Source of the DNA: Escherichia coli
GTDB lineage: Bacteria > Pseudomonadota > Gammaproteobacteria > Enterobacterales > Enterobacteriaceae
Direction: 5' to 3' (one strand)
DNA: 64,000 nt
NCBI RefSeq assembly: GCF_041248615.1
Contig: NZ_CP158426.1
Of this stretch, positions 3,228-39,025 are shown in pieces; the stretch's first letter is position 1; each line of letters starts with the position of its first letter. The notes beneath the pieces were generated by a model. The model saw only the letters and a program-made list of their open reading frames with translations, was not told where the DNA came from and did not search any database. The translations under genes and the position numbers were made by a program.

Positions 3228-4373
3228 ATGATATTATCATTACAATATATTAGAGGAATAGCATCATTACTTGTTGTTTTATTCCACTTCAGATTCTTGC
3301 TAAATGAGCACTACTCTCAGAAAGATTTGGGTGACCTATTATTTGGGAATGGGCTGTCTGGAGTTGATATATTCTTCATATTAAGTGGATTTATCATCGT
3401 ATACTCAACAAGAAAGAAGGAAGTTAATGATACTTTCTCATTCTCAATTAGAAGAATATTTAGAATATACCCATTACTAATCACATGCTGTTGCATGTAT
3501 TACATAATAAACACTCAATTTCTAACCTATGCTACAGTTGAAAACTTTAGAACCTTACTTATTTCCATCATTCCATTAAATATAAACTGGAATGAAGGCG
3601 CTCCATTCTTTGCCTATAATCTTTTGTACCCGGCCTGGACGATAACATATGAAATTGGTTTCTATGTTTTTTTCGGGGTATCAATGTCTATTTCGCATAA
3701 ATACAGAACAATTATCTGTTCTGTTTTTATAATCATGGTGGTCTCATTTACACAATACTATGTAAATGGAAATATATCATTTTCAGGTGATGTTAGTGCA
3801 GGGTTATTTACAGATAACTGGTTATTAGGATATACAAATGTTATTACATCTCCAATGATGTATGAATTCGTTATTGGGATGTTTCTTTCTGAAATATTTA
3901 CAAACATCAACGAAAGCAAAAGTATTAAAAGGATACTTTCAAAGTATTCGCTTCAAATACTATGGATTTCATGTGGTATATCCATAATATTATTCATTAT
4001 CCAGCGACCTTATGGGCATGGATTGAATGGATTTGGGACTATGGCGATGATACTTATTGCATCATCATTAGTATATGAATACTGCAATATAACACCCAAA
4101 ATAAAAATATTTAATTTCCTTGGTGAAATATCATATTCTTTATATCTAATTCACGCCGTGATACTTGCTTTGTTCTTCTATTATAAGGCAGACCTTGCTG
4201 AAATTGGCATAACTGGTGGATTTTCTGTGTTTTTTTCCTTGGTTATTATCTCAATAACTGCATCATATCCAATATATATTCTCATTGAAAAGCCAATGAT
4301 AAATATAGGTAAACGTTTAATTGACAAGAGAAATAAGAGCATTAACAAAAAAGAAACCGAAATAACAGCGTGA
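3228..4373 (+). CDS. integral membrane acyltransferase, family 3 (putative O-antigen/polysaccharide O-acetyltransferase)
   Basis: Very hydrophobic multi-TM protein; N-terminal R/H motif YIRGIASLLVVLFH typical of acyltransferase family 3; ATG at 3228 chosen over the track's TTG at 3198; AT-rich codon usage. Confidence 0.7.
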   Translation: MILSLQYIRGIASLLVVLFHFRFLLNEHYSQKDLGDLLFGNGLSGVDIFFILSGFIIVYSTRKKEVNDTFSFSIRRIFRIYPLLITCCCMYYIINTQFLTYATVENFRTLLISIIPLNINWNEGAPFFAYNLLYPAWTITYEIGFYVFFGVSMSISHKYRTIICSVFIIMVVSFTQYYVNGNISFSGDVSAGLFTDNWLLGYTNVITSPMMYEFVIGMFLSEIFTNINESKSIKRILSKYSLQILWISCGISIILFIIQRPYGHGLNGFGTMAMILIASSLVYEYCNITPKIKIFNFLGEISYSLYLIHAVILALFFYYKADLAEIGITGGFSVFFSLVIISITASYPIYILIEKPMINIGKRLIDKRNKSINKKETEITA

Positions 4374-4410
4374 TAATGACAAAGTTAGTGCCGGGATACC
4401 CCGGCACTAT

Positions 4411-5748
4411 TTAATCTATTTCGTAAGTGACAGTGATTATCACTTCTGCATTATTACCCAAAACATTTTGATATATATTCATATTACCTGATAATGTAGT
4501 TGCTCCAGTAAGAGTTATATAACTACTATTTGCATCAACCCTTGGAAGTAAAGCGGTAACTGCTGTTGTTAAATTATTATAGTAGCCTGTACTTCCAACA
4601 TATGCAGCTTTATTGCTTGATACATATGGTAACCCTCCAATTCTGAAACCATCTCCTGACCCAATTAAAGTTATACCAAGGTGACATGTTGCCGTTATGA
4701 TATTGCCACTCCTGACATAATTTCCTTTCTGCTGATAATATGTGGCATTACCACCTACAGTCGGAATCCAAACTCCAGTTTCTATATCACCACATGACCA
4801 GTCTTCTGCTGTTGTTAGTTTTCCAGTAACAATAAATTTACTTCCACCACCAGAATTATAAGGAACAAAAATTGGATTTATTCTTGCATAAGTGTTACCG
4901 GTCTGCTCATTAAGATCATTTCTATCAATAAGAACTTGACCATTTTCGAAGTTTGAAATCTGGCAGTCTGTTACACTCCAGTCTCTTAACTTCACATCAG
5001 CATCCATGACACCAATAAGCTTACCAGCATTACCAATTTTTTCTTTATGCATATTTACATACACATTTCTTACCGTAACAGACTGAGGGAACAGATAATT
5101 AGCAGGATTAGTTTTATCACTTAAAACAGATATTACCCAAGGTCTGTATTGAGTACTTACTTCACAATAAAATCCATCAATAAGCGTTCCAGATGCCGCT
5201 GGCCCAAGTAGTATTCCACCTGTAGAGTGATGCGCACTACCTCCAATTACTCTCCCCTTAACGCAGTTAATATAGGCAAAACATCCTAAATCTTGATTGT
5301 CATAGGCTGACATAGCACAGTCTCTAACTGTTACTCGAGAATTTCCTCCGTCATAAGCTGAGCCATCAGTTTTCTTACCAACTATTGATATAAAGTTACC
5401 AATAGCAACTCGACTATAAAAAGTTTTTTTATAACACCCCTCAATTAAAATATCCCAGTTTTCAAACTGAGCATATATATCATAAATGCTGGCATTCCCA
5501 TAATCTATGAAATCACAATATCTTATTTTCGGCGTATAAACGGCACTTTTTATCTTTATACCACCTAATGCTCTCTCCCCACCTGTGAATCTAATGCCAG
5601 TAACGGTGTAATCGCCTTGATAGAAATTATCTGCGGTAGGATTATTTTCGTCAGAATCATCACCCAATATAATAGCAAATTCACTCCCTGAATAATTAAT
5701 TGTCGCCCCCTTATTTGAATATATAGTTACAGGTCTTATAAACTCCAA
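4411..5748 (-). CDS. beta-helix-like protein of unknown function (possible tailspike/depolymerase-like domain); lacks an ATG start, possibly frameshifted or truncated
   Basis: 445-codon ORF whose first codon is TTG; Gly/Asn/Thr/Val-rich repetitive sequence; in-frame upstream TGA; upstream out-of-frame ATG (5831) separated by an A7/T7 tract. Confidence 0.45.
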   Translation of the reverse strand: MEFIRPVTIYSNKGATINYSGSEFAIILGDDSDENNPTADNFYQGDYTVTGIRFTGGERALGGIKIKSAVYTPKIRYCDFIDYGNASIYDIYAQFENWDILIEGCYKKTFYSRVAIGNFISIVGKKTDGSAYDGGNSRVTVRDCAMSAYDNQDLGCFAYINCVKGRVIGGSAHHSTGGILLGPAASGTLIDGFYCEVSTQYRPWVISVLSDKTNPANYLFPQSVTVRNVYVNMHKEKIGNAGKLIGVMDADVKLRDWSVTDCQISNFENGQVLIDRNDLNEQTGNTYARINPIFVPYNSGGGSKFIVTGKLTTAEDWSCGDIETGVWIPTVGGNATYYQQKGNYVRSGNIITATCHLGITLIGSGDGFRIGGLPYVSSNKAAYVGSTGYYNNLTTAVTALLPRVDANSSYITLTGATTLSGNMNIYQNVLGNNAEVIITVTYEID

Positions 5749-6140
5749 AGAATTACTTATCAGATACTCTCCATAAGGAAAAAAATCTCAACTGGTGGTG
5801 AGTACTTTGGTCTGGAGTTTACGTAATTCATAATATTGATTACACCAACATCATAGATAATCGCCACCTTCTGGCGAGGAGCTCCTGATGCAATTAATCG
5901 CCAGGCCTACGCCCATTATTCATGGGTAAATTTTGGACGGAGCCCCCAATTCCATCCTCAATTCTCCCTCGCACTGAGGAGTAGTAAGTGCAATTATTTA
6001 AAAAATCGCAAACAGAATATTATCATTTATTCTTGCATTCTGTTAATTAAAACCACACATAAAAACGTTGATACTTGATAAGTAAGTAGAGTATTATTAA
6101 TGGTTTTAATAACGAACCTTTTAATCATGAGAAGCCTCAA

Positions 6141-7166
6141 ATGACTAGTACCAATAACATAACAAGAAAAAAAATGGATGGAGTAACAATCTTAAGATTT
6201 ATAGCTGCTTTTTATGTGTTTATTTTTCACATTAACATGAGAGTCCCCGTTAATTTTGGAGAGCTTATTAATAAAACCATTAGCAATGGCGTCATTGGCA
6301 TGAGTATTTTCTTCATGCTTTCTGGTTTTGTTTTGACTTATAATTACTATGGTTCCTTGTCAAACAATTACTTCAGGAAGCGAATAGCAAGAATATTTCC
6401 AGCCTATTTATTTTGTGGGCTTTTAACCCTCCCATTTTTGTTATCCAGCGATGCAAGCTTTTTAAAAATGATTGCAAGCATATTCTTGTTTGTTACTGGA
6501 ATGCAATCATGGATTTATCAGACCTTCGATTTTTGGAATTTTAGCGGTACCTGGTCAATATCAGTGGAATTGTTTTTTTATGCCCTGTTTCCATTTTTGA
6601 TAAAAAACATCAACAAAAACAATGTAATTTATGTTTTACTTTTTTCATATTTATCTTCAGCATTATTAATCCCATTATCTGATATAATTCAGGGACCTGT
6701 AGTTTGGTCCGTATATTACGCAACTCCAATATACAGGTTACCAGAATTTGTGGTGGGCGTCTGTATCGCAATACTTTTTTTAAATGGCTATCGTGTTAAC
6801 CATTATACATGGCTATTAAGCATTTTATTATTTCTGTATGCTACCACCCAGCAAAACAATAACTCCATGGGGGTGAACTATCTCACAATTCCTGCGATAT
6901 CAATTATGTTATTGCACCTGGCAAAAATCAACATCAAAAACAACATTGCAAACAGAGCGATCATTTACTTTGGAGATATAAGTTATTCGTTTTATTTGAT
7001 GCAATTACCTATATTATATTACCTGGATCATAATAAAAACTCATTTATTCTTAACTATGGTCTTTTTAGCTGGCTTGTACTTTTTGTTATTAATACTGCA
7101 ATGGCATCATTATCTTATCACTTTCTGGAGAAGAACGATAAAATCAGAAAAATAATTACATCCTGA
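6141..7166 (+). CDS. integral membrane acyltransferase, family 3 (second copy, divergent sequence)
   Basis: 341-aa hydrophobic protein with motif ILRFIAAFYVFIFH; AT-rich. Confidence 0.7.
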   Translation: MTSTNNITRKKMDGVTILRFIAAFYVFIFHINMRVPVNFGELINKTISNGVIGMSIFFMLSGFVLTYNYYGSLSNNYFRKRIARIFPAYLFCGLLTLPFLLSSDASFLKMIASIFLFVTGMQSWIYQTFDFWNFSGTWSISVELFFYALFPFLIKNINKNNVIYVLLFSYLSSALLIPLSDIIQGPVVWSVYYATPIYRLPEFVVGVCIAILFLNGYRVNHYTWLLSILLFLYATTQQNNNSMGVNYLTIPAISIMLLHLAKINIKNNIANRAIIYFGDISYSFYLMQLPILYYLDHNKNSFILNYGLFSWLVLFVINTAMASLSYHFLEKNDKIRKIITS

Positions 7167-7207: not shown

Positions 7208-7603
7208 TCAACGTATTATCTCTGGCCTTTCTGGCCAGGTTATTTCTGGAATTAAGGACAAATCCACTGACATTAAATTATTAACATATTCCTTCCATAA
7301 CAAAAGATTGTTCTTGTTATTTTCACTTATAATACCGAGTAACAAATCTGACTGCCAGTTCATAATTAAACCATTAGCACTATCCAGCAGACACTGTCTT
7401 TCATTCTCTGCCTCACGAAGTAATTCATCATGTGTTTTTGGCGGCTGCGTAGGTGACGAAAGCTTTCCCTTATCATAGAACCAACCAATTCTTACATTAT
7501 CGGATACAGGTATAACTAACGCATTAGTTGGTTGCCAGGCACTCTCACCATCCCATACCGCAATATTGGTAACAACACCATTTTCTATAACGGCATAGTT
7601 CAT
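7208..7603 (-). CDS. tail fiber assembly protein (Tfa-like chaperone)
   Basis: Protein MNYAVIENGVVTNIAVWDGE... resembles the Tfa family N-terminus; immediately downstream of the tail fiber gene with TGATG overlap. Confidence 0.7.
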   Translation of the reverse strand: MNYAVIENGVVTNIAVWDGESAWQPTNALVIPVSDNVRIGWFYDKGKLSSPTQPPKTHDELLREAENERQCLLDSANGLIMNWQSDLLLGIISENNKNNLLLWKEYVNNLMSVDLSLIPEITWPERPEIIR

Positions 7604-8712
7604 CACGCATACTCCCAAATGATTGCAATACCAGCCATTCCGCTACCTCCGGCACGCTGCTGCGTCGCTCCACCGTAGACACAGGCACCACCGCCTCCAC
7701 CACCATGGCCATTAGCATTAATACCTTCGCCTACAATGGCTTGTGACCCAGCCCCCGCACCAAGGATTGAATCGCCGCCAGGCCCCCCCATCGCCAGACT
7801 GCCGGAATACCGAACGCCTGGTGAGCTATAACCGCTTCCAGACCCGATAATATTTGCACCTGTAAATCCCGGCTCAGTATATGCTCCATACGGACCAACA
7901 ACCCCTGGAGCAGTTCCTTCAGCAAGAACATCCCCACCAAGGCCACCTTTGGCAATTATGGTATTGCCGAAAGAGGTTGTTCCCCCGGGAGCACCAACCG
8001 ACGCACTTGCACCAGTGCCACCATATCCGATTGTCACAGTAGTTACGGTTGGATTATCCACGCGAGCTTTAACATACTCCCCGGACATCCCCCCGCCACC
8101 ACAAGCAGCATTATTGGGATAACCGACCTGACAACCACCACCGGCCCCACCACCACCAACAATTTCAACAATAATAAATTTTGTGCCTTTTGTCGGAGTG
8201 TATGTACCTGAGCTTTTAAACACCTGACACTGTATAAGCCTCCCGGAGCCATCTCCCAAACCAAGGTATGCGAGAATGTCATCAATAGTATTTTTGCCGA
8301 TAATATCACGGCCTACCTTAGTGAGGTCGGTCTGCGCAGCCTTATCTGTGCCAGTGAAATACGGTAGCTTATTTGCACCTGTCGCCAGTCCGGCCAGAGC
8401 CGTCAACGTGGCATCAAGCGCCTGATAATCCTTACCGAATGCAGAAGACATTTTGGTAATGAATCCATTCAGGTCGCCATCATCCAATACATCCAGTCCG
8501 CTTTTGTTTGCTGTGTACTGTGCAAGTGCTGCAGCAATAAAGCTGGCCTGCCGAATAACCTTATTGACTTGCGCACTGGAGGCTTTCCCTGCTGTAAATC
8601 CGGATAAAAGCGCGGGCAACGCTTCCCATTCCTCCTGCGATATAACATTGGCATTTCGATCCGTTGCAAACGCTTTAAAGTCATTTTTCGCCATCAGAGT
8701 AATACTCCCCAT
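7603..8712 (-). CDS. tail fiber protein with glycine-rich C-terminal domain
   Basis: 369 aa; conserved fiber N-terminal region then GGxGG-rich repeats; follows baseplate genes. Confidence 0.7.
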   Translation of the reverse strand: MGSITLMAKNDFKAFATDRNANVISQEEWEALPALLSGFTAGKASSAQVNKVIRQASFIAAALAQYTANKSGLDVLDDGDLNGFITKMSSAFGKDYQALDATLTALAGLATGANKLPYFTGTDKAAQTDLTKVGRDIIGKNTIDDILAYLGLGDGSGRLIQCQVFKSSGTYTPTKGTKFIIVEIVGGGGAGGGCQVGYPNNAACGGGGMSGEYVKARVDNPTVTTVTIGYGGTGASASVGAPGGTTSFGNTIIAKGGLGGDVLAEGTAPGVVGPYGAYTEPGFTGANIIGSGSGYSSPGVRYSGSLAMGGPGGDSILGAGAGSQAIVGEGINANGHGGGGGGACVYGGATQQRAGGSGMAGIAIIWEYA

Positions 8713-10570: not shown

Positions 10571-10923
10571 TACGCCTCCGATGTAACAGTCGTTATTCCA
10601 TAAAGAGTGTCGATTTCAGCGGAAAACATGACACGTCGGGTCGTGGTATCCACCGTCGTATTGAAAGAGAGGATTGATTTAACGCCCTGCGTTTCGAGGA
10701 TGCGTTTTCTGATCGCCAGGTTGTAAGTTTCCGGTTTTTGCCTGCCCAGCACGGACTGGATCCACGGAGTCCCCTCGGTGGTGTCGAGAAACCATTGCCC
10801 ATACCACAATTCGAATCGCGTTTTTACCGCCTGCGCCACGGCCTCCGGTGAGTTAATCAGCCAGGTGTCATCACCGCTGCCAAAGGTGTAATCGCCATCG
10901 GCGTCTTCACGTCTGTATCGCAT
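10570..10923 (-). CDS. baseplate wedge protein (GPW/gp25-like)
   Basis: 117 aa, tightly coupled between spike and J-like genes. Confidence 0.6.
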   Translation of the reverse strand: MRYRREDADGDYTFGSGDDTWLINSPEAVAQAVKTRFELWYGQWFLDTTEGTPWIQSVLGRQKPETYNLAIRKRILETQGVKSILSFNTTVDTTTRRVMFSAEIDTLYGITTVTSEA

Positions 10924-11675
10924 CAGTTTACTCCGTCGGTATTGCTTCCACCGCGCTGAACACCACCATGAGTGTGCGTATCATCGATTGGCTTGCCGTT
11001 AGCCTTCACGCTACCCAAAAACTCAACAGCACCAGTGATTTTTGAAGCCACACCAGAAACAACAGACCCCACCATGCCACCCATCCAGGTTAACAGGCCA
11101 TGAATGGTTACTTTCTCAGAAAAATCAGCCAGAGGAGCAACCACATCAAGACCACCCGGAGCGACAATTTTAATTTTCCTGGTGTCAGGATTAAGCTCAA
11201 AATAGGTGCTGCCGTCGTCACTACGCAACTGTGTGGCACTGGTATTAATACCGCTAATCTTCCTCGCCTGCGACTGGGGACCGACAATACAAAACGCATC
11301 CGATAAATCATGCATTCTGTCATCGACCGGCTCCTGTATCCCGCCACTCTGCCACCAGAAATCAATACAACGATCGGCAAAAACGACAAGACACTCATCC
11401 CCGGCTTTTACCGGAAAAGTCAACGTACAGCCTCCGCCGCGCGGGAATACCACTGGTACATCCACCAGCAATGGGTAATTTTGGGTAATGCGGTTGCCGT
11501 CATTATCCTTTTCAACCGAACGGATAGCAGGCTGCACAACTGCCGTCACCGCATCAGGATCGAATGACTGAATAATGCCAGGCAAGGCGACACGGATCTG
11601 GTTCTTTGTTGTTTCCCGTTCAGATTTGAATGTTTCGGCAAGGTCGCCGCTGCGGGTCTGGTCAGATACTGCCAT
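10923..11675 (-). CDS. baseplate spike/assembly protein V-like
   Basis: 250 aa, Gly-rich C-terminus, precedes the W-like gene. Confidence 0.6.
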   Translation of the reverse strand: MAVSDQTRSGDLAETFKSERETTKNQIRVALPGIIQSFDPDAVTAVVQPAIRSVEKDNDGNRITQNYPLLVDVPVVFPRGGGCTLTFPVKAGDECLVVFADRCIDFWWQSGGIQEPVDDRMHDLSDAFCIVGPQSQARKISGINTSATQLRSDDGSTYFELNPDTRKIKIVAPGGLDVVAPLADFSEKVTIHGLLTWMGGMVGSVVSGVASKITGAVEFLGSVKANGKPIDDTHTHGGVQRGGSNTDGVN

Positions 11676-11694
11676 TTAGTAGGCTCCAGAAAGC

Positions 11695-11720
11695 AAAAAA
11701 CCCGCCATCCGGCGGGTTTT
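11695..11720 (-). terminator. rho-independent terminator downstream of the lipoprotein gene
   Basis: Stem CCCGCC/GGCGGG with loop ATCC, flanked by A6 on one side and T4 on the other (T6 on the reverse strand). Confidence 0.6.
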
Positions 11721-11740
11721 ATGTGACTAATTTGATCTTT

Positions 11741-12466
11741 TCAGTTTATAAGCCCCATCTTACCGGCGCTTCGATAGTTAATTACATCGCCTGAAGAGCC
11801 GCAAGGCACAGCTACAGTCGACATTTTGACAAATCCTTTACCGCCCTGCTTTTGGCATAAAGTGGCATGCATTTTTGCTAAACGCGCAGCATGACCAAAA
11901 TCAATTTTGGTTCCGTAAGTTGAATCTCGTAGAGCTGCTTTTTTTGCAATTCCAGTAATATTTTTGTCTTTAATTACAGATGCAAACAAACTCAAATCAT
12001 TTCCAATTTGATTGAAGCAAGTACGATTAATATCAACATCGGCATACGCTGAAATGCGTTTGCAATCTGAGATCTGAGAAAGCACAGATGTGTTAACCAG
12101 TTGCAAATTTAATTTGTAGTCACCGACATAGGTATAAACTTTGTTAGGGTCCGTGGTTCCCGGATAACGAGTTACGAATGGAATGCTGTTGTACGCATCT
12201 CGCAAAGATTCTGCACCCTTACTTTTAAGCTCGTTCCCAACACCAGCAACGATAACCTCTGGATGTGAAACTTCAAATTGAGACTTTTCTTCGCGCTGTA
12301 TTTGAAGCCTGCTTTTCTGGCTCTCCTCAACTTGCTTATCGTACGCTTGTTTTTCTTCATTTTTTTGGGATAGCCATTTTTCCTGCGCTTTAGCACCATT
12401 AGGATCCCAACTACATGAAGTTAAAAAAAGAGAAAATACGATTGTGGTTATCGCAAGCCTGCTCAC
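11741..12466 (-). CDS. predicted lipoprotein of unknown function, inserted within the baseplate gene cluster
   Basis: Signal peptide with lipobox MSRLAITTIVFSLFLTSC; E/K/Q-rich coiled-coil-like segment then Cys-containing C-terminal domain; AT-rich relative to neighbours; own terminator. Confidence 0.6.
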   Translation of the reverse strand: MSRLAITTIVFSLFLTSCSWDPNGAKAQEKWLSQKNEEKQAYDKQVEESQKSRLQIQREEKSQFEVSHPEVIVAGVGNELKSKGAESLRDAYNSIPFVTRYPGTTDPNKVYTYVGDYKLNLQLVNTSVLSQISDCKRISAYADVDINRTCFNQIGNDLSLFASVIKDKNITGIAKKAALRDSTYGTKIDFGHAARLAKMHATLCQKQGGKGFVKMSTVAVPCGSSGDVINYRSAGKMGLIN

Positions 12467-12468
12467 TA

Positions 12469-13533
12469 TTATGCACCTCGATTCATCGCTGACTGGCTAG
12501 GAATATCACTAGCACCTCGAGCAAAGCACATCATATCCATGTACCACGCCTGGCCCCTTGTGTCGCCAGTGTACATAATCCCGCGCACAATATAAACGCC
12601 ATCCGTTGCGATGCTGGCAGGTTGTGCTGTGGTGCCGCTGAGTGTGATATTTCCGTCCGTGTTCTGGTCGGTGATCTGCCCACCAGCCATCGCAATATCA
12701 TTGTTCGACAGCGCGGTGCGGTACACGGAAGCCTGATCCAGCTGAATAAGCCCGTTAACCCGGATGTTCGGATTAATAAGCGCGCGGACGTTTACGCCGT
12801 TACCGATAGTCTGCTGCGGCATGCCAATAAGCCCGGTAGCGCTGTTGAGCACAATCGCTTCATGAACATATTCGTTATTCGCCACCATCTGGCGCTGACC
12901 GTCCACGAATTGCCATGTTGCGCCACATTGCCCGGCTACGTTATCCATTAGATGCCGCGTCATGCCAAAGAGCACCCGCCCCCGGGGGAATACAGTAGCA
13001 GGCATTTCAGGCGTCAGGCCTTCGGTCGCACCTTTGGCTTCGAAGTCTTTCATCAGCGCACGGTTCACATCAGCGACCGTGTAACCGGCAGCCAGCGTCT
13101 GTGAGGTTATACTGGTGGCAAAAGCCAGATCAGTATCTGCTGCCTGAATCAGGACGTAGGAATCAACCGGACTGTCTTTTCCTGTGACCGAGTAGCGAAT
13201 TTCACCGCTGAAAATCAGTCCGTAGTTGCGGCCATCTCTCTGGCCCACGTCCGCCGCGTCAACTTCCCGCACGGTCCCTACGTCGCTTGCTGACACCTCC
13301 GGCGCGATACCGTCGTAACCGGCAATCAGACGCACTTTCGAAAATTCCTGCCCGGTGATTCGGTTCACAGTATCTGCCGAGAGGTTATAAATTTTGATAG
13401 TCCCTACCCGGGACGCGCTGCTGATGTTGAACCAGTCGATCGTAAAGGTGACTTTGAAATCACTTAGCTCAATTCCCTGACCGTTCCCGTCCACAAGCTG
13501 CAGCTCGAAATGTCTCATCCAGTTCTGTGACAT
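12469..13533 (-). CDS. tail/baseplate structural protein (hub-like by position)
   Basis: 354-aa ORF between tape-measure-proximal genes and the spike gene. Confidence 0.45.
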   Translation of the reverse strand: MSQNWMRHFELQLVDGNGQGIELSDFKVTFTIDWFNISSASRVGTIKIYNLSADTVNRITGQEFSKVRLIAGYDGIAPEVSASDVGTVREVDAADVGQRDGRNYGLIFSGEIRYSVTGKDSPVDSYVLIQAADTDLAFATSITSQTLAAGYTVADVNRALMKDFEAKGATEGLTPEMPATVFPRGRVLFGMTRHLMDNVAGQCGATWQFVDGQRQMVANNEYVHEAIVLNSATGLIGMPQQTIGNGVNVRALINPNIRVNGLIQLDQASVYRTALSNNDIAMAGGQITDQNTDGNITLSGTTAQPASIATDGVYIVRGIMYTGDTRGQAWYMDMMCFARGASDIPSQSAMNRGA

Positions 13534-13838: not shown

Positions 13839-14425
13839 TAGCCGCCCCCCAGTAATGACGCCACGTTACCCGTGATGCTTTTCAGCAGTGAAGTATCTGG
13901 AGGCTTTGTGGTTTTGTTGCCGCTATTCTGTACCGCCGACGTGCTGGCCCCTTCCTTCATGTTGGTTTTATCCGCGACGGTAATCTGCTGTGTCCGGGAG
14001 ATAAGGACCTCCCTCAGGGTGAGGACGGCGGACAGGACGTTTTCGGTTGTCTTGTCCGTCGTCACTTCCAGCGCCCGGATCAACATGTTGCTGTACAGTC
14101 GTTTACCGGTTACCACATCGAAGGGGATACGGCTTTCCTGCAGATCCAGTAGCTCCTGATACGTCTGCTGAGGACTCAGGCCGAGCAGGCTGGTAGCCGT
14201 CAGATTACTGGCAAAATCCAGCAATGCGCCGCCACCGGCGAAACCAACCTCCATCACCACTTCTGACGGTTTTTTATAGGCATGATCAGCGACAGCGGCC
14301 CCAACCTCTACCGGATGCTCTGTTATTTCAAGCATATCTGTATGCTTCTCTGAAATAACAACACTGGGAACAATCATTCCTATTTTTCTGCTCTGCTGAT
14401 GAAAAAGTGTAGAGAGAATATCCAC
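13838..14425 (-). CDS. tail protein of unknown function
   Basis: 195-aa ORF immediately after the tape measure gene, coupled stop/start. Confidence 0.4.
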   Translation of the reverse strand: MDILSTLFHQQSRKIGMIVPSVVISEKHTDMLEITEHPVEVGAAVADHAYKKPSEVVMEVGFAGGGALLDFASNLTATSLLGLSPQQTYQELLDLQESRIPFDVVTGKRLYSNMLIRALEVTTDKTTENVLSAVLTLREVLISRTQQITVADKTNMKEGASTSAVQNSGNKTTKPPDTSLLKSITGNVASLLGGG

Positions 14426-16413
14426 TAACCCACCCTCACCTGATTACTTCGCATGACCTGAGCATTTGCAGACTGTTGCCGACGTGCAACCTCATTACCG
14501 ACAGCGTGCGGATCTCCGCCACCGTAAATGTGGTAGGTATTTTGCTGGTTAACCTCTGTCACTTTGCCACTAATTCCCGCCACGGCAGCCTTATTAATCA
14601 GCTCTCGAGAATAGATATTTCTTCCATTCTCATGCTGGATAATGCTGCTCATCAATGCTGACATGGTTTGCGGATCGCTCATATTCAGGGCAGCCCGGGG
14701 ATCCACTCCCAGTCGTTGCGATACAGCCCTGATATACGCAGTTGTGTTGTTATTATCAGACGCAGGTGCCCAGGTAGAGATAATTTTCTCCACACTGTTT
14801 ATTCCCCGTCCGGCGTACAGCATTAACTGACGAGCAAGAGCCCGTAATCCATCAAAGGCAGTTTCAAATCTGGCAAATCGCCCGCCCGGGCGTTCAAGAG
14901 AAGCCCCTGCCTGACCAGCAAAATTAAGGTTTCCCGGATTGTTATTCCGTTCTCCTCGTTTCGTAGCCTGTGCATGTTGTTCCGGCTCATCATCACCAAA
15001 CCAGCCGCGTACCGTCCGGCCCACACTGCGGGGATCAAATCCCCAGTGCTCTTTAATCCAGTCGGCAGTACTGTTAGCGCTGTCTGTAACCATCGGCATC
15101 GCTGACGGATTTTCGCTGCCCTGATTAAGTATCTGTTTGCCGATGCTGACGGCATCAGCCCAGCGGCCATCTTTGATAGCGTTGAGCAGGTCGGCGATCA
15201 TGTTCAGCATTTTGCTGAATTCGCCCATCTGGTCGATGAAGTTGCTGAAATCCCACTTCAGGGACCATGATTTGGGGTCAATATTGAGCAGTTTCGCCAG
15301 CGCTTTCACCAGGTCGTTAACGGTCGTTTTAAGGTCACGAACCATCTTCAGCGCGGCATCAACCTCCGGTTTCCACTTGCCCCAGTCAATCAGGCTGTCG
15401 CCGCCTTCCTTCCAGGTCTGATAGTCCTCCCACAGGAGGGCAATCCCCGCCGCCAGCGCGGTAATGAGGCCAATCGGCGACATCCAGAACGTACTGTTCA
15501 GAATGCGCAGCGCAATCGTCAGTGCGCCAAACAGCGAGATCAACTCCCGCGTTTGCTTATCCAGCGATTGCCACCAGGTGATGAGGCCTGATGTCCCCTC
15601 AATCAGTCTGAAGAACAGCCGCCCGATAATATCCCCGAGCGCCAGAATGCCTTTTATGGCTTTCGTCAGGGTCTGCTCGATACGCGGGAAGTTGTCCAGG
15701 ATATGGCGGCGCAGTGTGTCCAGCGAACCCGCAAGCCCACCCGCAAGATTAGAGCCGATTTTGTCACGGGCCATGCCTGCCATCGCGCCAAACTCACGCA
15801 GGGAGGTCATAAATTTGTTGGAGCTTCTGGCCGCCTCGTCAGCATTGAAGCCGATAGCTTTCGCCATTGCGCTGTACTGCCCGGAGAAGCCACCCACACC
15901 GCGACGCATAGCCAACAGGGTATTTTCGTCAATGCCCAGCATCTGCGCATACTGGTTAGCACGGTAATACGGCATGTCGCTGAGCTTCTGGCCTACCCCT
16001 GTAAAAATAGCGGCCATGTCACGCATGTTACCGCTGGCATCCCGTGTCTGTACCCCCAGACGATTCAGAAATCCCTCCGCCCCGGGATTATTACGAATAA
16101 ACCGGGAGAGGTTTTCCAGAGAAGATCGCGCAGCGTCCACGCTGCCGCCAACCTGCGAAACCGCATAGCCAATAGACTGAATTCCCTGGACTGTCGCGCC
16201 GGTGCGCTGTGACGCCCAGTAAAGATTATCCAGGCCGGAGGCGATCTTAGCCGTGAAGGCCACCACGGACAGCGCCGCTCCTTCGACGGCCAGCCCCATT
16301 TTGATGACATTTGCAGTTGTACCGGCGAGGACAGAACCGAATTTTTTCGCTCCTGCATCATCCACACTGAAGCCAAGCGAGACAAGGAAATCTTTAATAG
16401 TCTCGGCGTTCAT
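14425..16413 (-). CDS. tail tape measure protein
   Basis: Long Ala/Gly/Leu-rich protein following the chaperone gene; start MNAETIKDF with RBS GGAGAGAGG. Confidence 0.7.
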   Translation of the reverse strand: MNAETIKDFLVSLGFSVDDAGAKKFGSVLAGTTANVIKMGLAVEGAALSVVAFTAKIASGLDNLYWASQRTGATVQGIQSIGYAVSQVGGSVDAARSSLENLSRFIRNNPGAEGFLNRLGVQTRDASGNMRDMAAIFTGVGQKLSDMPYYRANQYAQMLGIDENTLLAMRRGVGGFSGQYSAMAKAIGFNADEAARSSNKFMTSLREFGAMAGMARDKIGSNLAGGLAGSLDTLRRHILDNFPRIEQTLTKAIKGILALGDIIGRLFFRLIEGTSGLITWWQSLDKQTRELISLFGALTIALRILNSTFWMSPIGLITALAAGIALLWEDYQTWKEGGDSLIDWGKWKPEVDAALKMVRDLKTTVNDLVKALAKLLNIDPKSWSLKWDFSNFIDQMGEFSKMLNMIADLLNAIKDGRWADAVSIGKQILNQGSENPSAMPMVTDSANSTADWIKEHWGFDPRSVGRTVRGWFGDDEPEQHAQATKRGERNNNPGNLNFAGQAGASLERPGGRFARFETAFDGLRALARQLMLYAGRGINSVEKIISTWAPASDNNNTTAYIRAVSQRLGVDPRAALNMSDPQTMSALMSSIIQHENGRNIYSRELINKAAVAGISGKVTEVNQQNTYHIYGGGDPHAVGNEVARRQQSANAQVMRSNQVRVG

Positions 16414-17043
16414 TATCCTCTCTCCATTTCTCAATGCGCCGCTGGTTATCCGCTTTTACCGCCAGATGGTCATTCAAGAGAGCAATGTCGTACAAATCGA
16501 CAGAGCCATCTTTAAGTGCTGTATAAGGAATTAACCCGGCGTCAACCGGATTGAGAAGGTAGGACAGCCCGTCCGGCAGGCTGTTAAACGTCAGCCCTGT
16601 TGCAGGCTCTGCGTCGTGCTGGTAAGGGGTGTAGGCAAAAAATTTCCCAGCGAATCGGCGACCACCCGCGCCACCAGCTGCAGCATGACCAGCAGGTCAA
16701 TATCATCAAACATCAGTTCGCCCTGGGTAAATACCGGCACCCATCCGTCCATATGACGCCGCGATACCACCGCAAGACAGGGATGAATAATCGCATCGGT
16801 GTCATCTTCGGTCAGGGAAGACAGTTCCTCAGCGATACGCGGGAGCATGGTTTCAAACACCGGTTTTAACTGCTCGAATTTCACGGTGTCGATTTTGCCG
16901 TCAGCAGGCAAACGGGAGCGAATGCTCCCGAAATCTGACATCATTCCCGCCAGTACCGGCAGAAGTTTGCGGGTCACTTTCAGCTGGTCAAAAACGCTGA
17001 GTTTTGCCACGCGATATTTCACGCCTTTGATTTCGAATTCCAT
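16394..17043 (-). CDS. tail assembly chaperone, predicted -1 frameshift fusion product (long form)
   Basis: From the slippery site (about 16639..16645) the -1 frame stays open for ~80 codons to a TAA at 16394..16396 overlapping the tape measure start. Confidence 0.5.
16591..17043 (-). CDS. tail assembly chaperone (short form)
   Basis: 150 aa, between tube and tape measure genes; contains slippery heptamer A_AAT_TTT near its 3' end. Confidence 0.55.
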   Translation of the reverse strand: MEFEIKGVKYRVAKLSVFDQLKVTRKLLPVLAGMMSDFGSIRSRLPADGKIDTVKFEQLKPVFETMLPRIAEELSSLTEDDTDAIIHPCLAVVSRRHMDGWVPVFTQGELMFDDIDLLVMLQLVARVVADSLGNFLPTPLTSTTQSLQQG

Positions 17044-29841: not shown

Positions 29842-29917
29842 TGGTGCTGGTTAACGGACTTGAACCGCTACCCATTCGCTTACAAGGCGACTGCTCTACC
29901 ATTGGAGCTAAACCAGC
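29842..29917 (-). tRNA. tRNA-like gene, anticodon UGU (Thr) by manual folding
   Basis: 76-nt cloverleaf: acceptor GCTGGTT/AACCAGC, D arm GCTC-CAATGGTA-GAGC, anticodon loop CTTGTAA (U33, A37), T arm AGCGG-TTCAAGT-CCGTT, 3' ACCA; one anticodon-stem mismatch. Confidence 0.55.
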
Positions 29918-29922
29918 ATGTT

Positions 29923-29997
29923 TGGCGGGACAGCGTGGACTCGAACCACGATAAGAAGGTTAACAGCCTTCCGTAATGACCTTTATACGACTGACCC
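29923..29997 (-). tRNA. tRNA-like gene, anticodon GUU (Asn), possibly degenerate
   Basis: Anticodon arm GAAGG-CTGTTAA-CCTTC and T arm CGTGG-TTCGAGT-CCACG are perfect; acceptor stem has one mismatch and the D stem is short. Confidence 0.45.
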
Positions 29998-30088: not shown

Positions 30089-30577
30089 CTATGCTACATG
30101 TTTAATTTTCTCTACACGTTTCCGATTTTTAAACGCACTATCCAGAACCGGGTAAATCATAAACAACGAGGCATTAAGGATTTCGTCAACTTCCCGTCGA
30201 CAGGTTGCGAGCGATGGTTTTTGAATGCGCCCGCCGCCACGGCATAACATCTTGCGAGGTCTTGCGACGCGATGATAGTAAGATGCAATGGCGTGCTTGG
30301 AAGAGCCATGAGCGTAGTAGCTGAGGAGGATTCCAAAGGCTTTCTTGTCAATGTACATGACGGAATCGACGACCTGAGAAATCAACATTCCATCATCATC
30401 ATTACACATTGGCCTTGTCATAACTCTTCCCGGCTCTACGCTCTCCATGAACTTCGCTATTACGCTGCTCATGCGCTTTTCCAGACGACCTGAATAAACC
30501 CATGCGCCCCACAGTTCAAGCCAGCCATTCAGCCACTCATGCTGTTCTTTGGTGAGGTTTAGTTCTCTTATGCCCAC
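30089..30577 (-). CDS. Q: late gene antiterminator Q (non-lambda type)
   Basis: 162 aa, GTG start at 30577; Cys-containing C-terminal region; occupies the Q position between nin genes and the lysis cassette. Confidence 0.65.
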
Positions 30578-31124
30578 GCGCCTTCTCCCTGTACCTGAAT
30601 CAATGTGAGATTTCCGCAGAACACTGCCCCAGTATCGATATACATCTGGTTGGCAAATTTGAGTGGTTTCACTGCTGGCGTATGACCAAAGATAAACGTG
30701 TCCGCGCCTTTAATTTCTTTAACGATCCCGTCTTGTGAGTTGCTGATTCGTTCGCGGTTCCAGATTACCTGCTGATGATCAACTGGCTTTCCAAATTCGT
30801 ATTCGTCACAAGGATAATCGGCGTGGCAGATGACATATTTTTTACCTTTGCTCACCAGTTCGATGATTAACGGAAGTTCTTCTGCTTTATGGGCAAGAGC
30901 TTTAGCCAGAATTTCTTTGTCGTAATCGAGATTAAAGAACCAGCCACCGCCATTAAGCAGCCAGTGATTAACGTTTCCACGCTCTGATAAGCCATCAATC
31001 ATCATTTGTTGTCGAATCCAATCGTATCCAGTTTGTTCATAAGGTTCGTGTAGCATCCGTGCAGATCGCCAACCACCCAAATATTTCGGTATTTGCTGCC
31101 ATCAATTCTTTCGTAGATATTCAT
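30568..31124 (-). pseudogene. ninI: ninI (lambda Ser/Thr phosphatase) disrupted by an internal deletion and frameshift
   Basis: N-terminal 40 codons ([40 protein letters not shown]) end at TGA 31002..31004; the C-terminal 160 aa ([15 protein letters not shown]...) lie in another frame; the GDxVDRG and GNHE motif region is absent. Confidence 0.6.
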
Positions 31125-33036: not shown

Positions 33037-33116
33037 GACTTCCCTCTCCCCCAAATAAAAAGGCCTGCGATTACCAGCAGGCCTGTTATTAGCTCAGTGA
33101 TGTAGATGGTCATCTT

Positions 33117-33389
33117 TTAACTCCATATACCGCCAATACCCGTTTCATCGCGGCACTCCTTAAAAATTAGGTTCGTGCTCATCTTTCCTTCCCGTTCTTC
33201 CTTGGTAGCAAACCGGTAATACACCGTTCGCCAGACCTTACCTTCGATAACCAGAAGACCTGCCCGTGCCATTTTAGCCGCGGCCTGATTTATGCTGGTT
33301 ACTGTTGCGCCTGTTAGCGCGGCAACGTCCGGCGCACAGAAGCTATTATGCGTCCCCAGGTAATGAATAATTGCCTCTTTGCCCGTCAT
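33117..33389 (-). CDS. ren: Ren exclusion-protection protein
   Basis: 90-aa ORF immediately downstream of P; sequence recalled as lambda Ren-like; true start may be slightly upstream. Confidence 0.75.
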   Translation of the reverse strand: MTGKEAIIHYLGTHNSFCAPDVAALTGATVTSINQAAAKMARAGLLVIEGKVWRTVYYRFATKEEREGKMSTNLIFKECRDETGIGGIWS

Positions 33390-36933: not shown

Positions 36934-36944
36934 GAGGAATTAAT

Positions 36945-37568
36945 ATGTCATCAATCCGCTTAACTACGAGAATGAAAGAGGAAATCGCTCGTAACGCTTT
37001 AATTAAGTCTGGGGTTTTCACTGAACTTGAAGAAGTAACAAAGTTAAAGAACCAGCTTGCACTTGACGCCAGAGTTATTGCGTTTGGCGGTAAAAAGAAA
37101 ACTGAGGAAGTGGATCAGTTATCATCCAAGTTGGTAGCTATAAGTGAAGAACTTGAAAAGATGGGATGTTCATTTTACTCATACGATGTTCGTTCTACTT
37201 CAATTTATCTGACTGTATCTGGCAGAAGGGTTGGATGGCTTTCATATGGGAAAGACGGCAACGGCGAAGATATATTGCTCCCTGCTCCGAACAAAGATAA
37301 ATGCATGTTTAGCGCAGAACACGAAATAACAAAAAGGTTTGATGAAATCTGCGCATTGCAACAAAAACTTGAAGCCAAGAAAAAGGATATCGAATCAAAT
37401 GTATGGGCTGCTTTGAACTCAGTCACAACAGTTAAGCGACTTATTGAAGTTTGGCCTGAAAGCAAAGAGTTGCTACCAAAAGAAGCAGATAAAGCAAGTA
37501 CAGCACTTCCTGCTTTACGGGTAGAAGATTTGAATAAGATGATTGGACTTCCTTCCGAGGCCGCATAG
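36945..37568 (+). CDS. hypothetical protein (207 aa) immediately downstream of N
   Basis: ATG at 36945 with RBS GAGAGGA; no motif I can assign; followed by a terminator. Confidence 0.5.
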   Translation: MSSIRLTTRMKEEIARNALIKSGVFTELEEVTKLKNQLALDARVIAFGGKKKTEEVDQLSSKLVAISEELEKMGCSFYSYDVRSTSIYLTVSGRRVGWLSYGKDGNGEDILLPAPNKDKCMFSAEHEITKRFDEICALQQKLEAKKKDIESNVWAALNSVTTVKRLIEVWPESKELLPKEADKASTALPALRVEDLNKMIGLPSEAA

Positions 37569-37925: not shown

Positions 37926-38059
37926 GCACTGTGTATTCATTCCAACGAGTGAATACACGGAGCAATGTCGCTCGTAACTAAACAGGAGCCGACTTGTTCT
38001 GATTATTTGAAATCTTCTTTGCCCTCCGATGTGAGGGCAATTTTTTTGATGGAGGATAT

Positions 38060-39025
38060 ATGAGTGAAGTAACAGATTTAGTTGTTATTGAAAAAGCAAA
38101 TGCAATGACTGTATTTCAGTCTGCCGACCAGATTGAAGAAATCCTTCAAAAGGTTGAACGTGAAGTTATGTCCTTTGTGCCTGATATCACAACGGCAAAG
38201 GGCAGAAAGGAGATCGCTTCTCTGGCGTATAAAGTTGCGCAGACGAAAACATATCTCGATGGTCTTGGCAAAGACCTTGTTGCTGAACTGAAGGAAATTC
38301 CAAAGCTAATTGATGCCAACCGCAAGACAGTGCGTGATCGCCTTGATGAGCTGAAAGCCAAGGCACGCCAGCCTCTTACTGATTATGAGGAAGAACAGGC
38401 GCGGATTAAAGCCGAAGAGGAAGCTAAGGCAGCAGCTGAAGCCCTCGCAAAGCAAATTGAGTCTGACCATGAAATAGCGATTTTGATGGATCGCGAATTT
38501 GACCGCAAAAGAGAAGAGGCAAGACTCAAAGTGGAGCAGGAAAAGCGAGAGCATGAAGAACTCTTAAAAAGAGAAGCTGAAGAGAAAGCCAGAGCAGAAG
38601 CCGAAGCAAAGGCAAAAGCCGAAATTGAAGCAGCAGCAAGGCGAGAAGCAGAAGCTAAGGCAGCAGCGGAACGTGCAGAGCGTGAACGCATTGAAGCCGA
38701 GCAACGAGCACAGCGCGAAGCAAAAGAGGCAGCAGAACGAGCTGAAAGAGAAAAGCAGGCAGCAATTGAAGCAGAACGCCGAAAAGCACAGGAGGAGGCT
38801 GAACGAATCCGTCGCGATGCTGAAGCAAAAGAGCAAGCCAGAATAGCAGAAGAAAAAAGAATCAAGGAAGAAGAGCGTAGAGCAAAGGATAAAGCTCACC
38901 GGAAAGAAGTAAATAACAAAATACTTGCTGACCTTATCAAGGTTGGCGCATCAGAAGATGTTGCTAAAAATATCATAACAGCCATCGTAAAAGGCGAAGT
39001 ATTCGCAACAAAAATAACCTACTAA
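38060..39025 (+). CDS. coiled-coil protein with E/K/A/R-rich low-complexity core, probable recombination-module component
   Basis: 321 aa; central ~150 aa of AEAKAKAEIEAAARREAEAKAAAERAER-type repeats; upstream of the Sak4-like ATPase. Confidence 0.5.
   Translation: MSEVTDLVVIEKANAMTVFQSADQIEEILQKVEREVMSFVPDITTAKGRKEIASLAYKVAQTKTYLDGLGKDLVAELKEIPKLIDANRKTVRDRLDELKAKARQPLTDYEEEQARIKAEEEAKAAAEALAKQIESDHEIAILMDREFDRKREEARLKVEQEKREHEELLKREAEEKARAEAEAKAKAEIEAAARREAEAKAAAERAERERIEAEQRAQREAKEAAERAEREKQAAIEAERRKAQEEAERIRRDAEAKEQARIAEEKRIKEEERRAKDKAHRKEVNNKILADLIKVGASEDVAKNIITAIVKGEVFATKITY

Follow-up and report, generated by a model that had tools for sequence, protein, structure and literature searches.

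A gene for a predicted lipoprotein, placed between the baseplate hub and spike genes of an Escherichia coli prophage, belongs to a domain family that is almost confined to the neighbourhood of the hub gene in contractile tails of the SEN34/E217 type. The family, its near-exclusive link to the hub and the architecture of the slot that it occupies, with an exported protein first, variable cargo behind it and fixed boundaries, are new here; accessory genes and exclusion lipoproteins in tail operons are as such of a kind already known. Our preferred reading, to which we give a probability of a little under 40%, is that the lipoprotein acts in the periplasm and blocks the entry of incoming phages after they have adsorbed.

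The prophage takes up approximately 2.7-44.85 kb of the window (the whole stretch of 64,000 nucleotides that was analysed; E. coli NRZ14408, NZ_LT599825.1, has the identical sequence), with ybhB and ybhC on either side of its integration site. Its cI, cro, O, P, nin and Q genes are lambdoid, and the late operon, on the minus strand, leads from Q by way of the lysis and head genes to the contractile tail, which places the lipoprotein gene within the Q-antiterminated late transcript. The tail is of the SEN34/Brunovirus type, with E217/Pam3-like Pfam families. Directly upstream of the lipoprotein gene lies the baseplate hub gene (12469..13533, minus strand; phrog_196, E 5e-88; E217_GP41-like in relatives), and directly downstream the gene of the central spike (10923..11675, minus strand), which has a weak P2 gpV match and, in relatives, a PF18352-type N domain, and whose ribosome-binding site GGAG is found at 11687-11684. 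The tape measure protein (TMP) is encoded at 14425..16434 on the same strand, the receptor-binding fibre genes lie ~3 kb from the lipoprotein gene, and a complete holin/endolysin/Rz-type lysis cassette is found at 28.5-29.7 kb.

Elsewhere in the prophage, between a tail-fibre assembly gene and the ybhB side, two plus-strand acyltransferase-family genes flank a minus-strand gene for a hypothetical protein of 445 aa (3228-7166); the acyltransferases, at the end of the prophage, are likely to be cargo that modifies the O antigen or the envelope. Genes for tRNA-Thr and tRNA-Asn lie between the Q antiterminator and holin genes (29842-29997), while the early-left region holds a Nmad5-family putative nucleotide-modification gene and a gene for a 321-aa product annotated as 'cell envelope biogenesis protein TolA' (36944-37567 and 38059-39024). 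In RefSeq the Ser/Thr phosphatase and ren genes are frameshifted (30568-31124, 33109-33388), and a tail-fibre gene at 7603-8712 is split into a pseudogene and a glycine-rich protein where the list of open reading frames has one intact frame of 369 aa; partial decay of the prophage may lie behind this, or else an error of annotation. The same TMP also bears different RefSeq names in near-identical records.

The lipoprotein gene runs on the minus strand from a GTG start codon at 12466 to a stop codon at 11743-11741 (11741..12466), encodes a precursor of 241 aa and is annotated as WP_029399670.1 in identical E. coli records. The initial annotation had described an AT-rich gene of 241 codons flanked by hub and spike, and this is borne out by a GC content of 0.408, where the hub gene has 0.542 and the spike gene 0.506. 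Its start lies 2 nt beyond the hub stop codon (TAA, 12471-12469), and a Shine-Dalgarno sequence GAGGTG (12474..12479, minus strand, as read from the sequence), 7 nt upstream of the GTG, falls within the final hub codons. With the start so close behind the hub stop, the gene is at least co-transcribed with the late operon. A site scan found no sigma-70-like promoter on the minus strand upstream of 12466; a weak promoter may lie within the 3' end of the hub gene, where reading by eye gave nothing convincing.

The precursor begins with MSRLAITTIVFSLF-LTSC and has the charged n-region, the hydrophobic h-region and the lipobox ([LVI][ASTVI][GAS]C) of a lipoprotein, so that its N-terminus, MSRLAITTIVFSLFLTSC, is a canonical lipoprotein signal, and the LTSC lipobox recognised at first holds. 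Signal peptide and lipobox span residues 1-18 (12413..12466, minus strand). Cys18 is predicted to be the lipidated first residue of a mature protein of 224 aa, and the lipobox cysteine is retained in nearly all full-length family members. The +2 residue is Ser here, and Asp occurs at +2 in no family member. In the Lol pathway, lipoproteins without Asp at this position are sorted to the outer membrane. By this rule, and from the Ser at +2, the protein is predicted to be an outer-membrane lipoprotein.

An AF2 model of the full lipoprotein has a pLDDT of 85.6. Residues 22-67 (12266..12403, minus strand) appear in it as a single long helix, of which 54% is E/K/R/Q and which has no heptad register; being confidently modelled and free of heptads, it resembles a single-alpha-helix spacer and not a coiled coil, so that of the E/K/Q-rich, coiled-coil-like segment proposed earlier the composition stands and the coiled coil falls. 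The helix would form a spacer or stalk ~7 nm long (46 residues x 0.15 nm). Residues 68-241 (11744..12265, minus strand), aligned in alignments A1 and A2, form a globular alpha/beta domain with a pLDDT of 95 in the domain model. In both alignments it carries four family-conserved cysteines (135, 150, 204 and 222), in agreement with the Cys-containing C-terminal domain of the initial annotation, and its conserved motifs are SHPEV, FVTR, CKRxSAY and FGHAARLAKMH. The initial annotation could match the sequence to no known family, and Pfam, NCBIfam and PADLOC likewise gave no match for the lipoprotein; comparison of the domain model with solved structures returned no fold match, though the model is confident. 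A C-terminal hydrophobic or membrane segment was found neither in the sequence nor in the model. In some genomes PGAP calls the identical lipoprotein 'HMG-box domain-containing protein' (as in L003, 20142-20867), a name that is probably spurious and derived from the K/E/Q-rich helix.

The gene occupies a slot that is filled differently in different phages. Among 5426 E. coli genomes the flanking hub and spike DNA is present in 351 and the lipoprotein gene in 11; human, bovine and cat isolates are among the carriers. Close relatives were sampled as 80 IMG/VR loci in which the hub is 95% identical or more, 79 of which have both flanks, and about 15 distant relatives complete the sample. Across the 79 loci the slot measures 400-1859 nt and its genes are arranged in at least 20 architectures, and in every locus the first gene 3' of the hub encodes an exported protein. 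In 69 this is phrog_3443, a protein of 111-117 aa with a Sec signal and two cysteines and without a Pfam match. The lipoprotein comes first in five loci, always without other cargo, and a further five begin with C9, which is ~150 aa long, soluble and recognised by the domain HMM (E 1e-14). Among the variable cargo of the second and third positions are membrane proteins with DUF4282 or DUF2335, a YafO-like toxin, a two-transmembrane protein that matches PycTM weakly and another protein with a weak likeness to HEPN.

In E. coli, Klebsiella and Yersinia phages with this type of tail, the gene that follows the hub is usually phrog_3443 (L008-L013, L024, L025 and L106, besides the 69 IMG/VR loci). 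In one more distant relative (L007) the lipoprotein gene is followed by genes for a two-transmembrane protein and a small protein, an arrangement that mirrors ETEC H10407, where phrog_3443 stands before a two-transmembrane protein and a small protein; the lipoprotein is in this sense the positional equivalent of phrog_3443. Homology between the two is rejected, as BLASTP found none and the A2 HMM matched none of the 69 phrog_3443 proteins. In L037 (5505-6098) the C9 gene runs by a frameshift into a 3' remnant of phrog_3443 in another frame, and the junction looks like the scar of a cassette replacement. Next to their hub genes, Providencia PSTCR3 and Burkholderia Magia encode different proteins with signal peptides. 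In two distant phages, Acinetobacter Ab105-1phi and the virulent Rosemountvirus UPF_BP2, the slot is absent and the hub abuts the spike, which argues that the slot is accessory, unneeded to build the tail and not part of the virion. As a separate matter, the C-terminal half of the spike (equivalent to 10923-11300) is anywhere between 42% and 100% identical in the IMG/VR phages, whose hubs agree to 95% or more, and this variation does not follow the slot cargo. A literature search found no description of the lipoprotein, of phrog_3443 or of the slot between hub and spike.

The slot has sharp edges. On the spike side lies an intrinsic-terminator hairpin with a T-rich tail (11687..11720, minus strand; stems 11720-11711 and 11706-11697, loop GGAT), which begins twenty bases past the lipoprotein stop codon, has 10 pairs, six of them G-C, and is followed by TTTTTTGCTTTC. 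Of the terminator-like sites within 7-20 kb it ranks first (-18.7 kcal/mol, z -2.0). Irrespective of cargo, the same hairpin, AACCCGCC-loop-GGCGGGTTTTTTGCTTTCTGGAGCC, ends the slot in nearly all of the 79 loci: 65 have the strict motif and most of the others a one-base variant, and across L026-L105 AACCCGCC-loop-GGCGGG with a T-run, where it is conserved, lies ~60 nt upstream of the spike start. The strong terminator reported after the gene is real, but it apparently serves the slot as a whole. The 4-nt loop varies with cargo type, which suggests that cassettes are exchanged at or within the hairpin. On the hub side the last ~19 codons of the hub gene (12469..12526, minus strand) are hypervariable; the C-terminal ~14 residues of the hub exist in more than 20 variants among hubs that are otherwise 96-99% identical, and this variation is present within every class of first slot gene and specific to none. 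DNA homology to relatives breaks at ~11718, in the hairpin, and at ~12527. As judged from these sequences, the hypervariable hub end is the left recombination edge of the slot.

Conserved structural genes that flank hypervariable accessory or defence genes are known from hotspots of the P2 Z/fun type (bioRxiv 10.1101/2024.10.15.618418), and the fixed flanks and many cargo architectures seen here are of the same kind. The present site differs from them in lying between hub and spike in SEN34-type tails, in that its first gene, coupled to the hub, always encodes an exported protein and in having a conserved hairpin as its right boundary.

How far the lipoprotein gene can be called a classic moron, as was proposed initially, depends on which attribute is considered. 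A moron in the sense of Juhala and Hendrix is extra DNA between genes that are adjacent in related phages (PMC3594210), and both the direct junction of hub and spike in UPF_BP2 and Ab105-1phi and the deviating base composition agree with that description, as do the accessory nature of the gene and its exported product. A strong terminator lies behind the gene here and in distant loci, though in close relatives the same hairpin closes the slot with any cargo. The designation stands only in part, since no promoter was found and the gene is packed translationally behind the hub, with its Shine-Dalgarno sequence inside the hub gene; since the terminator appears to belong to the slot and not to the gene; and since the position is permanently occupied in close relatives (79/79) and never empty, which is not the pattern of a sporadic insertion. 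The conserved terminator does bear on expression: within an operon that is antiterminated by Q, its retention would point to unmodified transcripts that, in lysogens, begin within the slot or shortly upstream. This argument weakly favours expression of slot genes in the lysogen, where the lipoprotein gene itself may be expressed.

Beyond the close relatives the family is tiny. A full HMMER profile search of 1.84 billion proteins yielded 36 representatives, and a word-indexed search of 5.8 billion proteins 15 clusters. Members come in three forms: short (~200-246 aa), long (330-378 aa, with an extra N-terminal domain) and soluble, the last having a signal peptidase I signal (P0025 and cluster C9). 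Most members with a readable context adjoin the hub gene of the SEN34/E217 tail type, even at ~40% identity. The position between hub and spike is found again in a Budviciaceae locus (L004) and in L005/6, L007, L019/20 and L021, and a very distant member lies between plug and hub (L016/17); members in these tail-type positions share 18-47% identity. The exceptions are a copy in L015 that is apparently chromosomal and outside any phage, and one in L022 that lies in another integrase/primase element. Identity to the window is 41-47% for the lipoprotein, 46-62% for the hub, 45-58% for the TMP and 52-68% for the spike, so that the lipoprotein gene has diverged roughly in step with the tail module. 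In all distant loci it is poorer in GC than both flanks, the difference being 10-14 points in most, and wherever the next gene is a tail gene, the plug-hub locus included, a hairpin and T-run lie 3' of it.

Superinfection exclusion, named by the initial annotation as a typical role for a prophage-encoded envelope lipoprotein, is plausible for this protein, as far as its predicted export and its context go. We prefer a periplasmic block of entry because the product is predicted to be an exported, disulfide-type domain, because the stalk would hold that domain away from the outer membrane, because the family is deeply tied to the hub gene of one tail type and not to the fibre genes, because toxin-like and membrane cargo of the kind found next to it is typical of accessory or defence hotspots, and because there are precedents in HK97 gp15 (PMC3594210) and T4 Spackle (PMC7677548). 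The lipoprotein would be exported by Sec, lipidated and sorted by the Lol pathway to the outer membrane, facing the periplasm, where the stalk would keep the domain off the membrane at about the level of the cell wall. There it would stop a step of entry that follows adsorption. Possible targets are the parts of the tail tip, namely the hub, the spike or the cell-wall-cutting end of the TMP; alternatively, the domain might occupy a host periplasmic factor that the tail needs. As anchored forms of the family can stand in for soluble ones and vice versa, their target ought to be accessible in the periplasm. The benefit would be that the lysogen or infected cell is protected and that progeny are spared wasted injections. 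Late in infection the Q-modified polymerase would read past the terminator, and in the lysogen the terminator would halt unmodified transcripts that start in or just before the slot.

In the TMP, residues ~491-625 resemble the solved endolysin 7q47_A (E 4.9e-13) and Gp29 (9vvp_L, E 7.7e-20), a likeness to PDB sequences only, as Pfam returned no match for the C-terminal 271 aa; the TMPs of two distant relatives (L019 and L020) have a recorded SLT domain. The endolysin-like region is a possible periplasmic target of the lipoprotein, and inhibition of a tail hydrolase in the manner of Spackle is one concrete version of the entry block.

The precedents resemble the lipoprotein in different respects. 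HK97 gp15 is a moron in the tail operon that blocks entry in a tail-dependent manner (PMC3594210); like the lipoprotein gene, it is accessory, deviates in GC, lies between tail genes of a prophage with lambdoid regulation and encodes an envelope product. However, gp15 belongs to the YebO family, is small and resides in the inner membrane, and its gene has a promoter and a terminator to itself, whereas the protein described here, of an unrelated family, is predicted to reside in the outer membrane, and its gene has no promoter that we could find and a terminator shared by the slot. In T4 the gp5 tail lysozyme is inhibited by Spackle, a periplasmic protein with disulfide bonds (PMC7677548). The lipoprotein shares with it export and predicted disulfides, and like Spackle it would act on a contractile tail that brings a cell-wall hydrolase into the periplasm, here presumably the endolysin-like domain of the TMP. 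Spackle is a soluble early protein of 75 aa from a virulent phage and is unlinked to gene 5; the lipoprotein differs in its lipid anchor and stalk and in showing no covariation with the TMP domain, and comparisons of sequence and of solved structures gave no homology or shared fold between the two. The LprI/DUF1311 family (PF07007) is likewise exported and helix-rich with conserved cysteines, but membership failed every test, with neither a profile nor a fold match, and inhibition is itself no more than a putative role of that domain (PMC7933661). Ab105-1phi does encode an LprI/DUF1311 protein with a signal peptide (Pfam E 1.6e-9; L109, 666-1022, minus strand), directly after the TMP gene and on the opposite strand; this TMP gene, of the same tail type, is annotated with a lysozyme-like domain.

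Several observations count against an entry block. The class of first slot gene does not covary with the C-domain of the TMP, the hub, the N-half of the spike or other baseplate genes, and phages with 100% identical TMP C-domains carry phrog_3443 instead of the lipoprotein. Neither sequence nor fold similarity to known exclusion proteins or lysozyme inhibitors was found. One family member is apparently chromosomal and one lies in another mobile element. Lastly, the promoter search found none, which leaves expression in lysogens no more than possible.

Other functions can be envisaged, and each accounts for part of the evidence. A host-fitness or virulence factor without a role in exclusion would alter the cell-wall homeostasis, serum resistance or adhesion of the lysogen. 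Lambda Bor confers serum resistance, and Lom is a comparable envelope protein. An AT-rich accessory gene with a terminator behind it fits such a role, as do the human, bovine and cat origins of carriers and the one chromosomal member outside any phage, and a periplasmic protein with four conserved cysteines, ScwA, can regulate cell-wall enzymes (PMC7933661). Yet the family keeps to one gene position of one tail type even where it has diverged deeply, the promoter search found none belonging to the gene and Pfam detects no relation to Bor or any other family, which together make this alternative unlikely.

A second possibility is that the protein masks a receptor, binding an outer-membrane receptor from its periplasmic face so that phages, released progeny included, cannot adsorb irreversibly. 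T5 Llp and the lambdoid Cor proteins protect in this way against superinfection and the loss of progeny. The lipoprotein resembles them in being a phage-encoded, predicted outer-membrane lipoprotein in or beside the tail genes, and its packing and operon position suggest co-expression with the late tail genes. The Llp precedent is cited in PMC12952977 and treated in bioRxiv 10.1101/2022.06.28.497910. Llp and Cor, however, are small, are encoded beside the gene of the receptor-binding protein and have FhuA as their target, whereas the lipoprotein is three to four times larger, stalked, linked to the hub and not to the fibre genes ~3 kb away, and without homology to them in PHROGs or Pfam. A ~7 nm stalk and the existence of soluble members would also be ill suited to a target at the periplasmic surface of the outer membrane, and we consider receptor masking distinctly unlikely.

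Quite as improbable is a periplasmic helper of the lytic cycle that modulates the cell wall or the outer-membrane link at lysis, or guards the producing cell from the tail hydrolase of sibling phages (lysis from without). The tight coupling to late tail genes, the constant occupancy of the position in close relatives and the endolysin-like domain of the TMP would all agree with such a helper, but the prophage has a full lysis cassette elsewhere, the protein has neither a C-terminal membrane segment nor a proline-rich Rz1-like sequence, and more distant phages with this kind of tail do without the slot. A spanin of either kind (Rz1 o-spanin or u-spanin) was rejected in view of the cassette at 28.5-29.7 kb, the 241-aa length, the globular C-domain and the lack of a C-terminal hydrophobic segment. 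A structural or assembly role in the baseplate, for which the location between hub and spike genes alone speaks, is hardly tenable given an export signal with lipobox and conserved cysteines of periplasmic type, unrelated proteins in 69 of 79 near-identical tails, the absence of the gene from UPF_BP2 and Ab105-1phi and the lack of any structural PHROG match.

If the lipoprotein does block entry in the periplasm, the idea can be extended, though in this wider form it is speculative and rather doubtful. Temperate myophages of Enterobacterales with SEN34/E217-type tails may keep a dedicated 'periplasmic guard' position directly behind the hub, always filled by one of at least two unrelated exported families, phrog_3443 and the domain family of the lipoprotein in its anchored, long and soluble forms. 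These would make up a new exclusion class with a new fold that intercepts the contractile tail tip, be it hub, spike or TMP hydrolase, in the periplasm, the single-helix stalk serving as a ruler to set the domain at the depth of the cell wall.

Should the entry block prove true, an exclusion family with a new fold would be added to those known, and a step of contractile-tail infection that can be blocked in the periplasm would come to light, with a bearing on prophage-mediated resistance in E. coli and Salmonella and on the choice of therapeutic phages. Whatever the function of the lipoprotein, the slot between hub and spike, with its fixed edges and at least 20 architectures, is a place to mine for accessory and defence genes, and the rule that its first gene encodes an exported protein is a clear and testable regularity.
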